From a virus (lineage: Duplodnaviria; Caudoviricetes): a DNA stretch of 64,000 nt. The stretch covers positions 128,001 to 192,000 of IMG/VR virus record IMGVR_UViG_3300037295_000263; one strand, 5' to 3'. The notes under the pieces were generated by a model that was given only the letters and a program-made list of their open reading frames with translations, searched no databases and was not told the DNA's origin. Shown here piece by piece: positions 55,081-57,847 of this stretch. Positions within the stretch are counted from its first letter, which is position 1, and every line of letters begins with the position of its first letter. The translations under genes and the position numbers were made by a program.

Positions 55081-55171
55081 CGGCGGAAGGCTAGAGAGTC
55101 GAACTCTAAAGGCGCTATTAACACTCGGCTGTTTTCAAGACAGATCCCATCACCAGTTGGGTTGGCCTTCC
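55081..55171 (-). tRNA. tRNA-Ser(TGA)
   Basis: Acceptor GGAAGGC/GCCTTCC, loop CTTGAAA, long V arm, TTCGA; ends CCG rather than CCA. Confidence 0.85.
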
Positions 55172-55178
55172 TTTACTT

Positions 55179-55254
55179 TGGAGTACATGACAGGAATCGA
55201 ACCTGCATACACAGGATTTGCAATCCTGTCCCTAGCCTTTCGGGTCACATGTAC
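55179..55254 (-). tRNA. tRNA-Cys(GCA)
   Basis: Full cloverleaf, CAGGA-TTGCAAA-TCCTG, CCA. Confidence 0.93.
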
Positions 55255-55261
55255 ATTGTTT

Positions 55262-55337
55262 TGGCATCCCCGGAAGGCCTCGAACCTTCAACCTCTGGTT
55301 TTGGAGACCAGCACTCTGCCAATTGAGCTACGGAGAT
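55262..55337 (-). tRNA. tRNA-Trp(CCA)
   Basis: CTGGT-CTCCAAA-ACCAG, CCA end. Confidence 0.93.
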
Positions 55338-55343
55338 ATTGAT

Positions 55344-55400
55344 TGGTACAGCGTACGGAATTCGAACTCTCAAATACACCTTGGCAAGGTGTCAGGCGTG
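55344..55400 (-). pseudogene. Degenerate tRNA-Gly(GCC) remnant
   Basis: Perfect anticodon arm ACACC-TTGCCAA-GGTGT, TTCGAAT and CCA; T stem broken and 5' half missing. Confidence 0.6.
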
Positions 55401-55446
55401 ATAACGATTGTGGGTTTAGTATAGCTGTTCATGATATTTCCTGTAG

Positions 55447-55547
55447 GTTATATTAAAGCACACAGTGTTTTGAGGTATTTAAACTATGCCATTGGGGTTA
55501 CCAAATTCACGAGATTCCCGTCTCGATCCTATGTGCTTTAATATAAC
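55447..55547 (-). ncRNA. Inverted-repeat-bounded element A (16-bp perfect stem)
   Basis: gttatattaaagcaca / tgtgctttaatataac; begins just after promoter 55552-55580. Confidence 0.5.
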
Positions 55548-55551
55548 AATA

Positions 55552-55580
55552 ATTGTACTAGGTTAACGTTGACTTGTCAA
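55552..55580 (-). promoter_or_regulatory. Sigma70 promoter TTGACA-17-TACAAT
   Basis: Read directly. Confidence 0.8.
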
Positions 55581-55588
55581 CTATGTTG

Positions 55589-55664
55589 TGGTATCTCCAA
55601 CCGGATTTGAACCGGTGTGGTTCCCGTGAAAGGGGAAAATCCTAGGCCGCTAGATGATGGAGAT
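55589..55664 (-). tRNA. tRNA-Glu(TTC)
   Basis: TTCCC-CTTTCAC-GGGAA, CCA end. Confidence 0.93.
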
Positions 55665-55762
55665 AATTGTTGGCTCCAAATATTAGCTTGGAACCTAGTA
55701 GACATAAATTATGAAAATTAAAACAACTAGTTAATGAGTACGATAAGAAATAATACACTCTG

Positions 55763-55843
55763 CTCCGCCTCGAGGATTCGAACCTCGCCCTTTCGGATCT
55801 CCGGTTAACAGCCGGGTGCCTTCGCCTAGCCAGCCCAAGCGGA
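55763..55843 (-). tRNA. Atypical tRNA-Asn(GTT) with extended variable arm
   Basis: Loop CTGTTAA, T arm CGAGG-TTCGAAT-CCTCG, V region GATCCGAAAGGG, no CCA. Confidence 0.75.
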
Positions 55844-55939
55844 GCACAGTATACTGCATCGAAATAAACTTTACTTCTATTAATTATCTTGTTAAACAAG
55901 ATAAAACTAATTCTTACGGTTTTACACAAGACAGGATAA

Positions 55940-56158
55940 CCGAAAACTTGTCATATTTCCTTACGGACTTGTTTCTATTTAATTCCATTAATTATGTTGT
56001 TTCGTTATGGAACAGGCCCAACCCCGTTCATTTGCTTTTAACAAACTATGCTTACATACAGGATGATCAATCCAATCTCGTCATAGTTTAACTCGTGTAC
56101 CTTGATAGTCGACATCCAGTACAGTGAGAGTGCATTATGATATACGCCCAATTTTCCA
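55940..56158 (-). ncRNA. Candidate structured RNA of about 220 nt
   Basis: Helices AAACTATG/CATAGTTT, GGAT/ATCC, TTCCAT/ATGGAA, TGTAC/GTACA and a TCC-GTAA-GGA GNRA hairpin. Confidence 0.45.
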
Positions 56159-56234
56159 AAACAACATAATTAATGCAATTTATCTTTAGATGAATTAAAA
56201 AATAAAATTAAAATCTGGAATCAAAAGTACATCG

Positions 56235-56307
56235 AGCGGCGTATCGGGCTTGAACCGATGACCTCTAACTTGGAAGGATAGCGTTCTACCAACTGAACTA
56301 ACGCCGC
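56235..56307 (-). tRNA. tRNA-Gly(TCC)
   Basis: GCGGCGT/ACGCCGC, loop CTTCCAA; no CCA; flanks pair for 10 further bp. Confidence 0.9.
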
Positions 56308-56361
56308 TCGATGTACTCTGTTACCATTAAACTAATCCCGCATATTAATTACTATACACTA

Positions 56362-56390
56362 ATTATAAACTACTTGTTACTGTTTGTCAA
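56362..56390 (-). promoter_or_regulatory. Consensus sigma70 promoter TTGACA-17-TATAAT
   Basis: Read directly. Confidence 0.85.
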
Positions 56391-56424
56391 CCTATTTACT
56401 ACATAAAGATTATTTAAAATGGTA

Positions 56425-56574
56425 TCTTGTTCCCGTCCTTCGGGCCAATGTGTTGGGCTTTATTGCTCTCTACCTATTCAGCCATTCCCACCGTCGAGAG
56501 TCAGTGGGAAACATCTTAACACACCATCTGATAAAATACTAGCACTTGTAAACAAGCTCTTATCAGCAGTCAGT
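56425..56574 (-). ncRNA. Candidate kissing-loop structured RNA of about 150 nt
   Basis: CTGATAA/TTATCAG, TTCCCAC/GTGGGAA and GGCT/AGCC stems; loop CTCTC complementary to loop GAGAG. Confidence 0.55.
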
Positions 56575-56663
56575 TACCATAGTAAAACATATTGTGTGCT
56601 TGCGCCCTTACTTCCAGTTCTCTGAGTTGAGTTCTTTACGTCACAATATGTTTTACTATGGTA
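56575..56663 (-). ncRNA. Inverted-repeat-bounded element E (22-bp perfect stem)
   Basis: taccatagtaaaacatattgtg / cacaatatgttttactatggta, 45-nt interior. Confidence 0.5.
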
Positions 56664-56665
56664 TA

Positions 56666-56761
56666 TAAGTAGTGTGGGATTCGAACCCACGGACATAATA
56701 AACATGTATCAGCGAATTGACATTGTCAAAAGGCCGTCTTAATCCACTCGACCAACTACTC
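56666..56761 (-). ncRNA. Class II-type tRNA-like RNA without a canonical anticodon loop
   Basis: Acceptor GAGTAGT/ACTACTT, D arm GTC-GAGTGGATTAA-GAC, T arm GTGGG-TTCGAAT-CCCAC. Confidence 0.6.
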
Positions 56762-56766
56762 ATGTA

Positions 56767-56842
56767 CCATATTGAAACACACTACTTACGTCTTCGTGTA
56801 GAACCAAATAACACGATATTTGGCTAATGTGTTCTAATATGG
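56767..56842 (-). ncRNA. Inverted-repeat-bounded element B (76 nt) with internal pseudoknot
   Basis: 15-bp closing stem; CCAAATA/TATTTGG stem whose loop TCGTGT pairs with downstream ACACGA. Confidence 0.5.
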
Positions 56843-56858
56843 CGTGTACCATATACTA

Positions 56859-56887
56859 ATTATAAACTACTTTTTATATCTTGTCAA
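56859..56887 (-). promoter_or_regulatory. Consensus sigma70 promoter TTGACA-17-TATAAT
   Basis: Read directly; sits just upstream of element B. Confidence 0.85.
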
Positions 56888-56904
56888 CTATAATTTAATG
56901 CATT

Positions 56905-56996
56905 TGGCGGAACGGGTGAGATTCGAACTCACGGTACGTAATAAAACGTACGACAGGTTAGCAACCTGCTGCCTTAGGCCACTCAGCCACCGTTCC
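56905..56996 (-). tRNA. tRNA-Ser(GCT)
   Basis: GCAGG-TTGCTAA-CCTGT, long V arm, GCCA end. Confidence 0.95.
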
Positions 56997-57006
56997 GTAA
57001 AATATA

Positions 57007-57035
57007 ATTATACTGTATATTTTATACAATGTCAA
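57007..57035 (-). promoter_or_regulatory. Consensus sigma70 promoter TTGACA-17-TATAAT
   Basis: Read directly. Confidence 0.85.
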
Positions 57036-57183
57036 ATTTTATAATTGACACATGCTTATTTCCGTACAAAGCTTTTGCATGTTTGATAGCTTCTTTACGA
57101 TCTGCCACATGTACAATTCTACGATCTAATGCTTGTCCCATAGGAGAAATTACGTATTTGTAAAGTTGCTTTGATTCGTTCAT
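57022..57183 (-). CDS. Small hypothetical protein MNESKQLYKYVISPMGQ... (53 aa)
   Basis: AAGGA RBS and dedicated promoter; not in the ORF track. Confidence 0.65.
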   Translation of the reverse strand: MNESKQLYKYVISPMGQALDRRIVHVADRKEAIKHAKALYGNKHVSIIKFDIV

Positions 57184-57207
57184 AGTGTTTCCTTGTAAAA
57201 TAGAATT

Positions 57208-57236
57208 ATTATAAACTATTTGTTGCCGTTTGTCAA
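57208..57236 (-). promoter_or_regulatory. Consensus sigma70 promoter TTGACA-17-TATAAT
   Basis: Read directly. Confidence 0.85.
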
Positions 57237-57241
57237 ATTGT

Positions 57242-57314
57242 TTTTAATATAGCAGTCGCTACTGGGCATTGTAACTCCGCCCATATTACAGTTAGTTGGA
57301 CTGCTATATTAAAA
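57242..57314 (-). ncRNA. Inverted-repeat-bounded element C (73 nt) with internal pseudoknot
   Basis: 16-bp perfect stem; TGTAAT/GTTACA crossed by TGGGC/GCCCA. Confidence 0.55.
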
Positions 57315-57320
57315 CAAACT

Positions 57321-57396
57321 TGGTGCCGCCACGAGGATTCGAACCCCGGACATCTTCATTACAAGTGAAACACTCTACCAACTGAGCTATGGCGGC
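57321..57396 (-). tRNA. tRNA-Thr(TGT)
   Basis: Full cloverleaf, CTTGTAA loop, ACCA end. Confidence 0.95.
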
Positions 57397-57424
57397 AATA
57401 CTGTACAATTTTTACTACACTGTT

Positions 57425-57453
57425 ATTGTAACACTAAAAACTTTACGTGTCAA
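57425..57453 (-). promoter_or_regulatory. Sigma70 promoter TTGACA-17-TACAAT
   Basis: Read directly. Confidence 0.8.
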
Positions 57454-57462
57454 CTACTTGTT

Positions 57463-57536
57463 TGGTGGAGAATAAGAGAATCGAACTCTTAATTTCGGCA
57501 TGCAAAGCCAACGTTATCCCATTTAACTAATTCCCC
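57463..57536 (-). tRNA. tRNA-Ala(TGC)
   Basis: GGGGAAT/ATTCTCC with G3:U70, loop TTTGCAT, ACCA end. Confidence 0.92.
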
Positions 57537-57541
57537 ATAAC

Positions 57542-57621
57542 TGGTCTCTTGTGTAGGATTCCAACCTACGTTATTCTTGGTCCCAAACCAAGTGCCATTG
57601 AGCAGACTAGGCGAACAAGAG
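57542..57621 (-). tRNA. tRNA-Pro(TGG), atypical D and T loops
   Basis: CTTGG-TTTGGGA-CCAAG, ACCA end; T loop TTGGAAT; D loop lacks GG. Confidence 0.8.
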
Positions 57622-57627
57622 TAAAAC

Positions 57628-57702
57628 TGGCGACTCGTGCCGGAATCGAACCGGCGTAATAGGATAGACAATCCCACGTAATAACCTCTATACGAACGAG
57701 CC
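57628..57702 (-). tRNA. tRNA-Asp(GTC)
   Basis: TGGGA-TTGTCTA-TCCTA, GCCA end. Confidence 0.92.
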
Positions 57703-57711
57703 TTAAATTGT

Positions 57712-57794
57712 TGGTGGAGTATACTGGAATTGAACCAGTCGTGCCTAAGGCAGCGGAAGGCCTTCCACTGCATCACCATTGATGCTTCTACTCC
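57712..57794 (-). ncRNA. Tyr-type tRNA body with the anticodon loop replaced by 6-nt AGGCCT
   Basis: D arm GCATC/GATGC, stem GTGGA/TCCGC, V arm GCC-TTA-GGC, T arm ACTGG/CCAGT, ACCA end. Confidence 0.65.
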
Positions 57795-57847
57795 GTAATT
57801 TTAACACACTCTTTAGAATGTGTGTACTAAAGCAGACTAAAATGAGT

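Follow-up and report, generated by a model that had tools for sequence, protein, structure and literature searches.

A recurrent base-paired stalk enclosing unrelated inserts in phage tRNA arrays: an apparently undescribed family of small RNA cassettes

What are the long inverted repeats that alternate with tRNA genes in the genome of an aquatic phage, and do they act as RNA or as DNA? The question is raised by a 64,000-nucleotide (nt) stretch of DNA, bases 128001-192000 of the 216.7-kb phage contig IMGVR_UViG_3300037295_000263 from IMG/VR; this whole stretch is called the window here, and its own numbering is used throughout. Because the contig is estimated to be only 59% complete, we regard its source as a jumbo phage, and the contig sequence is present in DNA sequencing runs of metagenomes from salt lakes and other aquatic sites. 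From 55085 to 57800 the window encodes, on its minus strand, ten tRNAs called by ARAGORN, to which Rfam adds a tRNA-like RNA (56666-56761) and a tRNA resembling that for selenocysteine (Sec), and the cluster contains seven promoters that match TTGACA-17-TATAAT at 11 or 12 of 12 positions. As the tRNAs and the promoters all lie on the minus strand, the repeats are to be read as minus-strand RNA. An earlier examination of the letters alone, which we call the sequence-only reading, had proposed that four of these repeats, designated A, B, C and E, represent an undescribed class of phage noncoding RNA. We find that A, B and E are members of a large and apparently undescribed family of small RNA cassettes, confined to phages and built on one nearly invariant stalk, and that C is a separate hairpin.

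All four inverted repeats proved to be present. The arms of A (55447-55465 and 55529-55547) are 19 nt long and 95% complementary, those of E (56575-56596 and 56642-56663) are 22 nt long and perfectly complementary, and those of B (56767-56784 and 56825-56842) are 18 nt long with 83% Watson-Crick complementarity, or 17 of 18 pairs when G.U is allowed. The perfect 16-nt arms of C can be extended to 57234-57257 and 57299-57322, which are 24 nt long and 88% complementary. When folded as minus-strand RNA, each element gave a closed stem (z = -4.6 to -6.7), with none of 200 shuffled sequences folding as well. In the full 216.7-kb contig, exact inverted repeats of at least 16 nt separated by a gap of 25-90 nt are confined to A, E, C and a stem around tRNA-Gly, all within the same 3-kb cluster. 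None of the four elements was called as a tRNA by ARAGORN or by Rfam model RF00005.

55447..55547, minus strand: element A, a divergent family member with a 19-bp stalk (one U.G pair) and a 63-nt insert
56576..56662, minus strand: element E, a family member with a perfect 22-bp stalk and a 45-nt insert
56766..56843, minus strand: element B, a canonical family member with an 18-bp stalk and a 40-nt insert
57234..57322, minus strand: element C, alike in architecture but outside the family, with a 16-bp perfect stem (57242-57314) extendable to 24 bp and a 41-nt insert

Relatives of the phage were found through a neighbouring ATPase gene whose products are 54-59% identical and whose contigs carry their tRNA arrays elsewhere; among the loci around this ATPase, 14 viral and 18 metagenomic (53-66% identity), none has a syntenic tRNA cluster. 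A structure-only scan for hairpins in the relatives' arrays returned arms that nearly match those of B and E despite the diverged ATPase. We then scanned IMG/VR for exact matches to one arm motif, with tRNAs in 73 of 80 loci among the matches listed, and subsequently for the other arm. Together with a relaxed arm-matching detector, the two arm scans brought the count to 278 copies, of which 266 are unique; they occur in 130 of the 135 tRNA-array loci that could be oriented, all from uncultured phages. Read on the tRNA strand, the consensus is 5'-NCCAUAUNNAAACACAYU, insert, AGUGUGUUUNNAUAUGGN-3'. It describes a stalk of 18-19 bp whose sequence hardly varies. At position 9 about half of the copies are mismatched, frequently as A.C, and position 17 holds a U.G pair. 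Conservation of either arm far exceeds that of the acceptor stems in the adjoining tRNAs; insert length runs from 9 to 198 nt (median 53 nt). The conserved and selected part is the stem, and the earlier notion of a tRNA-sized body as the unit had to be given up.

The claim that all four elements share a loose arm motif held for three of them. B carries both the A.C mismatch at position 9 and the U.G pair at position 17, and differs from the consensus arms at 2 and 0 positions; E differs at 2 and 3. A covariance model, R1, was built from an alignment of 29 copies (A1) that includes B and E and leaves A out. It scores the two training members at 61.4 bits (B) and 51.5 bits (E), and the untrained A at 27.0 bits (expectation value, E, of 9e-5). 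The membership of A rests on this model since the relaxed detector also gives chance matches, four of them in five shuffles of the 216-kb contig searched on both strands. Within that contig only A, B and E match the family, and all lie in the tRNA cluster. C has no R1 match at E up to 10; we also considered whether it belongs to another stalk family, and no arms like its own were found in any fetched locus. Thus only A, B and E form one family.

The family is markedly restricted to viruses. Its two-arm pattern occurs in at least 120 stretches of viral contigs, compared with four stretches on three contigs among 185,579 prokaryote genomes. The three prokaryotic carriers (L227, L228/L229 and L230) are small contigs of metagenome-assembled genomes labelled Planktophila, Gammaproteobacteria and Polynucleobacter, and consist of dense tRNA arrays, with 9 tRNAs in 1.5 kb, 16 and 21 in two stretches of a 14-kb contig, and 12 in 3.9 kb; they are probably phage DNA that was binned with bacteria. 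Among cultured phages, blastn with two elements as queries brought up nothing beyond chance-level matches in 50,697 phage records, a weak test given the short arms and the low-complexity filter. Rfam holds no family matching the stalk, either in the window region at E up to 10 or in five other arrays at E up to 1, and a word search of the literature found no description of it. The proposal of an undescribed phage RNA class is thereby supported for A, B and E, which are phage-specific and without an Rfam match or a description that we could find, and does not extend to C.

We next considered whether the stalk is selected as an RNA helix. Covariation, which the sequence-only reading had suggested looking for, was found in A1: 94% of cells are paired, and 10 of the 19 pairs have changed on both sides. 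None of 500 shuffles reached any of these measures, and control alignments in which the arms were slid were 29-53% paired. As the first scan had favoured copies with a perfect 3' arm, we repeated the comparison with symmetric ascertainment. Copies chosen for a constant 3' arm (n=119) showed 89 departures in the 5' arm outside positions 9 and 17, of which 73 produce G.U, 2 produce A.C and 14 are other changes; copies chosen for a constant 5' arm (n=87) showed 16 departures in the 3' arm, comprising no G.U, 6 A.C and 10 others. The A/C-rich arm can drift to G and U without breaking RNA pairs and the G/U-rich arm cannot, a pattern that fits a helix selected in the tRNA sense. In agreement, R1 scores the tRNA strand higher for A, B, E and nearly all of the relatives' elements, with one weak match tying. 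These data show that the helix is under selection as RNA on the tRNA strand, and the earlier suggestion of RNA-level elements that would be transcribed together with the tRNAs is supported. A hairpin of single-stranded DNA is formally still an alternative to the RNA helix.

Near relatives from salt lakes provide a finer comparison. The 5' RNA arm of A differs in them by three changes, a C to U opposite G, a U to C opposite G and one that breaks a pair, so that two of the three obey the wobble-preserving rule seen across the family; its 3' arm is unchanged among the differences listed. Of the same differences, none touches an arm of E, B or C, and those within these elements lie in their inserts.

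The same evidence bears on the possibility that the elements are mobile or recombining DNA, such as miniature inverted-repeat transposable elements (MITEs), integron attC sites or promoter early stem-loop (PeSL) elements, in which case the arms would serve as terminal inverted repeats or as sites of recombination, with the RNA hairpin as a by-product. The arms do resemble terminal inverted repeats with fixed left-right differences, and insert length varies over the range given above. A strand-specific tolerance of changes that preserve G.U pairs is, however, not expected for double-stranded protein-binding sites, and the orientation of the elements to the tRNAs is fixed, with the tRNA strand preferred by R1. 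The elements also sit in register with the CCA ends of tRNAs and lack target-site duplications; their copies are non-identical, unlike those of recently active MITEs; and no transposase or integrase is among the ten commonest array proteins checked. The interiors are unrelated, the copies on the 216-kb contig are all in the tRNA cluster, and no duplication is found at the ends. The strand-asymmetric G.U pattern hence argues against the suggestion that the repeats are MITE ends, though the inserts are exchanged at the DNA level, as described below. Overall we consider a DNA element very unlikely.

What do the stalks enclose? The inserts fall into approximately 195 sequence clusters, many of which recur across contigs with visible compensatory changes, showing that many inserts are themselves conserved and structured. 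A hairpin resembling the T-arm of tRNA occurs in 23 of 266 inserts. The four inserts of the window are singletons, with no homologous inserts in the collected loci. The idea that inserts are pieces of rRNA was discarded, as a blastn-short search against the Escherichia coli rrnB operon gave nothing above shuffled inserts save T-arm matches to the spacer tRNA.

In five pairs of copies both flanking tRNAs are at least 90% identical. The arms of these pairs are 72-97% identical and the inserts are at random level in all five (identity of 0.41-0.55, compared with 0.48 for shuffles), showing that inserts have been swapped between otherwise identical tRNA contexts. Exchange also occurs on a larger scale. 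An 850-nt segment of the window, 56391-57241, is absent from related phages' contigs from three other runs, and the deletion joint lies between two repeated promoter copies (56352-56390 and 57200-57236). The segment contains B, the tRNA-like RNA, E, a further structured stretch, a tRNA-Ser and a 53-codon open reading frame (ORF), and its loss between repeated promoters indicates that promoter-bounded units come and go by recombination. Both the replacement of inserts between identical flanks and the coming and going of this module are what a DNA element would also produce.

Integron attC sites and the PeSL elements of T4-type phages border exchangeable modules with inverted repeats that are imperfect, vary in length and keep conserved ends. 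The stalk family resembles them in the swapping of inserts between identical flanks; it differs in that an RNA helix is favoured, no integrase is among the commonest array proteins checked, and the exchanged unit is an RNA insert of 10-200 nt rather than a gene.

We then asked how the cassettes are placed relative to the tRNAs, 97% of which encode CCA in these arrays. In 134 of the 278 copies the stalk opens with four bases that are the discriminator and CCA of the tRNA before it. At the other end, two or three bases (GGU or GU) are the start of the following tRNA in 55 copies, and about 50 more end within 9 nt of one. When in-register T-loops missed by ARAGORN are counted, a tRNA-type 3' end immediately precedes 146 of 264 copies. 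Register with tRNA ends is thus what defines the family's context. The features that frame the elements of the window are listed below.

55552..55580, minus strand: sigma-70-type promoter (TTGACA-17-TACAAT), 11 of 12 matches, before A
56859..56887, minus strand: sigma-70 consensus promoter, 12 of 12 matches, before B
57208..57236, minus strand: sigma-70 consensus promoter adjoining the 3' arm of C, one of the repeated copies that bound the 850-nt insertion/deletion
56666..56761, minus strand: tRNA-like RNA bracketed by B and E (Rfam tRNA, 38 bits; no ARAGORN call)
57321..57396, minus strand: tRNA-Thr(UGU) with encoded CCA, directly upstream of C
56224..56319, minus strand: tRNA-Gly(UCC) without encoded CCA, within a leader-trailer helix

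The adjacency to tRNAs reported for C, E and B is borne out, with C 6 nt after tRNA-Thr, E 2-3 nt after the tRNA-like RNA and B 5 nt before it; the ACCA of E begins 3 nt past the discriminator of that RNA. The extended stem of C starts in the CCA of tRNA-Thr and ends in the -35 hexamer of the next promoter. A and B do lie just downstream of sigma-70 promoters as described, A starting 4 nt past the -10 hexamer of 55580-55552 (11/12) and B 15 nt past that of 56887-56859 (12/12). We rejected promoter adjacency as a trait of the family; elsewhere only 3 of 129 copies show it, no more than random positions do (34 of 2000), and a start just after a promoter is peculiar to this phage.

The tRNA-Gly(UCC) leader-trailer helix is a perfect 17-bp duplex (19 bp with one mismatch) that prolongs the acceptor stem, and is in effect a stalk whose insert is a real tRNA. 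Weaker extensions of the acceptor stem are seen at tRNA-Asn and tRNA-Ser. Under the substrate rules of RNase P, leader-trailer pairing such as that around tRNA-Gly should need cutting or unwinding before 5' maturation.

The choice of upstream tRNA is uneven. An element follows 59 of 85 tRNA-Lys(UUU), 21 of 85 tRNA-Glu(UUC) and 19 of 79 tRNA-Gln(UUG), compared with 0 of 72 tRNA-Asn, 2 of 162 tRNA-Met and 2 of 84 tRNA-Pro, a bias that shared ancestry of the arrays may inflate. The three favoured tRNAs are the usual prey of anticodon nucleases. This pattern raises the possibility that the stalk regulates the tRNAs themselves by sequestering the CCA end, and sometimes the 5' end of the next tRNA, thereby delaying or controlling maturation, above all of Lys(UUU), Glu(UUC) and Gln(UUG), with the insert being secondary. 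The UGGU:ACCA pairing within the stalk matches the contact by which T-box RNAs and RNase P RNA hold tRNA 3' ends, which is in keeping with such a role. Against it, about 45% of the copies, including A and B, have no tRNA in register, the inserts are themselves conserved and structured, and the tRNA bias may partly reflect kinship among arrays. A more specific version, in which stalk positions 9-11 would be a codon for the upstream tRNA in the manner of a T-box specifier, failed; adenine is the commonest base at position 9 behind Glu (11/18) and Gln (10/18) and also behind Lys. We therefore think a regulator of tRNA maturation quite unlikely.

The reading towards which we tentatively lean, without giving it an even chance, is that the stalk helps to process and stabilise small RNAs of many kinds and doubles as a socket through which they are exchanged. 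RNA transcribed from the tRNA strand would fold into the 18-19-bp stalk and clamp an insert that differs in each copy. The ordinary enzymes of tRNA ends could then free the cassette, with RNase P acting on its 3' side, where the next tRNA begins, and 3'-end maturation acting on its 5' side; in the window phage, cassettes would in addition be placed directly behind the phage's own strong promoters. A duplex of about 20 bp could also be cut by the host RNase III. Passages of PMC1540722 give the criterion for this enzyme as a helix of about two turns, or approximately 20 bp, with cleavage leaving 2-nt 3' overhangs, and indicate that internal mismatches can limit cutting to one strand and leave a protective hairpin. 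The helices of the window measure 22 bp in E, 19 in A, 18 with one mismatch in B and 16-24 in C. What remained after cutting would be a hairpin-clamped small RNA protected from exonucleases. Of the functions offered by the sequence-only reading, which were tRNA-mimic decoys, nuclease sponges and RNase III-processed cargo RNAs, the last would come closest to the anatomy of the elements.

Searches for RNase III, double-stranded RNA-binding domain (dsRBD), TROVE and PF04308 proteins found none in four genomes, namely this phage (G000, 59% complete), a relative with a complete 364-kb genome (G001), G004 and G005; the lack of a phage RNase III or dsRBD protein implies that host enzymes would do the cutting. 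We also considered Mini-III, with its ACC^U specificity (PMC4357697), as a cutter at ACCA|U, and rejected it for the mismatch of motifs and for want of anything in its support. The same fixed arms would supply the flanking homology by which inserts are exchanged between phages, so the stalk may act as a universal socket. The inserts would most likely serve as decoys or mimics against host defences directed at tRNAs.

Several observations weigh against this processing and stabilising role. Approximately 45% of the copies adjoin no recognisable tRNA, and A, B and E of the window are themselves outside the canonical CCA register, A and B lying behind promoters and E being offset by 3 nt. Tight hairpins placed directly on CCA could hinder 3' trimming. 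Furthermore, processing and stability need pairing rather than a fixed sequence, yet the sequence of both arms is conserved; that the arms keep their sequence, and position 9 its mismatch, speaks for a specific partner that recognises the stalk.

Such recognition is at the centre of another explanation, in which a specific phage or host protein would use the stalk, including its A.C mismatch and U.G pair, as a handle and the insert would be a working or bait module, as in the particles formed by Ro60 and Y RNAs. It is favoured by the conservation of stalk sequence, and not of pairing alone, across phages whose ATPases are only 54-59% identical, by the failure of about half of the copies to pair at position 9, and by the tRNA-like nature of some inserts, as in bacterial YrlA. 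Y RNAs, including the tRNA-like YrlA (RF02553), likewise combine a terminal stem of conserved sequence, interrupted by an irregularity, with a variable and sometimes tRNA-like module. In contrast to those systems, no Ro60 (Rsr), TROVE or DUF2828 gene, and no dsRBD or RNase III domain, is found in the complete G001 or in the available 59% of this phage, both of which carry stalks, and no element matches RF02553 or any other Rfam family. DUF2828/DUF7788 genes are present in 13 of 135 arrays, including inside those of G004 and G005. No candidate partner was found, and we judge a protein handle unlikely.

A more ambitious form of the preferred reading, in which a partner reads the stalk, would make it a single docking and processing handle by which tRNA-rich phages express, stabilise and horizontally exchange well over 100 RNAs that act as decoys or mimics. 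Such a system would parallel integron cassettes at the RNA level, and its RNAs would work alongside tRNA-Lys, Glu and Gln to counter host defences that target tRNAs. We offer this as a speculation that is, in its full extent, unlikely to be correct.

Position directly after CCA also recalls the self-cleaving theta ribozymes, related to that of hepatitis delta virus (HDV), that reportedly lie beside phage tRNAs, and the stalks might analogously free tRNA 3' ends. The interiors of B and C could form pseudoknots, as far as base-pairing can be proposed from their letters, and a variant of the relatives (57287 T>C on the plus strand) would keep one candidate pair in C as G.U. However, only the stem is conserved in A1, without a conserved unpaired core, and the inserts are mutually unrelated. 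No ribozyme family was matched in the window region at E up to 10 or in five other arrays at E up to 1; for A, B, C and E themselves, the Rfam search that had been proposed returned no ribozyme or other family, with only tRNAs in the region. An HDV-like topology was also tried by eye for C and for G1a and did not fit. Self-cleavage is accordingly a highly improbable explanation.

How does the stalk compare with known arrangements in which RNAs are cut from longer transcripts? The RNase III stalks formed by the leaders and trailers of 16S and 23S rRNA, and the sites in T7 early RNA, resemble it in having a helix of some two turns, made by the sequences on either side of an RNA that is, or in the phage case would be, released from a polycistronic transcript, and passages of PMC1540722 indicate that there, too, internal mismatches can leave a protective hairpin. 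The phage stalk differs in being nearly fixed in hundreds of copies, in its register with the CCA and 5' ends of tRNAs, in its small, unrelated inserts and in its confinement to phages, and its cleavage is a supposition.

Species 1 and 2 of phage T4 (rnaC and rnaD) and the stable RNAs of T5 are likewise non-tRNA RNAs that adjoin tRNAs in a phage tRNA operon, and rnaC folds into a T-arm and a closing helix. They show no likeness to the family in sequence or model, R1 finds nothing in the T4 region, and T4 has two unique RNAs rather than a repeated stalk. In murine gammaherpesvirus 68 (MHV68), the tRNA-microRNA-encoding RNAs (TMERs) reportedly consist of a viral tRNA-like gene followed by hairpins that the tRNA 3'-end enzyme releases. 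TMERs are eukaryotic, depend on RNA polymerase III and Dicer, and have the hairpins as their product, whereas what varies in the phage cassette is the insert.

Phage tRNA arrays are now viewed as counter-defence loci, and their non-tRNA content is almost never annotated. The stalk family adds to them hundreds of conserved, structured and exchangeable small RNAs on one stalk that is in neither Rfam nor cellular genomes. Were the stalk a processing or stability module, it would be a compact natural route for releasing arbitrary small RNAs from a tRNA operon, with uses in engineering; were it a protein handle, there would be a new RNA-protein particle to discover. The inserts are a ready source of candidates for decoys or mimics that could be tried on anticodon nucleases and similar defences.

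The arrays contain further genes and RNAs. The commonest proteins encoded within or next to them (loci L032-L204) are RNaseH_like PF04308 (33 loci), metallophosphoesterase (32), endonuclease I-like proteins (23), dCMP/cytidine deaminase (22), HNH endonuclease (19) and dual-specificity phosphatase (18). Near-threshold matches to RF01414, the Dictyostelium Class I RNA, occur within phage tRNA arrays at L076:6904-6957, L092:13032-13086 and L061:4798-4853, the best (L076) scoring 40.4 bits with a cut-off of 41.5 bits. They have the look of another RNA family, distinct from the stalks, that shares these loci. Genes for transfer-messenger RNA (tmRNA) are present on two phage contigs, one of beta type beside a tRNA array (L048:13913-14302, 137 bits) and one beside the ATPase gene in a locus without tRNAs (L004:6878-7294).

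The tRNA cluster of the window shows additional features on the minus strand. A match to tRNA-Sec (RF01852) at 55085-55171 scores 47.2 bits with a threshold of 47 bits and is without an ARAGORN call. Two more tRNA-like stretches without such a call lie at 55349-55430 and 57712-57794; one has an ACCA end, a GCC anticodon-like loop and an aberrant D region, and the other has a long extra arm and a weak RF01852 match (21.9 bits). A 53-codon ORF at 57022-57183 has its own consensus promoter and no PHROG match. Finally, within 56649-56779 the 3' arm of B is complementary to the 5' arm of E across the tRNA-like RNA (25 nt, 84%), so an alternative stalk around that RNA is possible and neighbouring cassettes can, in principle, re-pair with each other.

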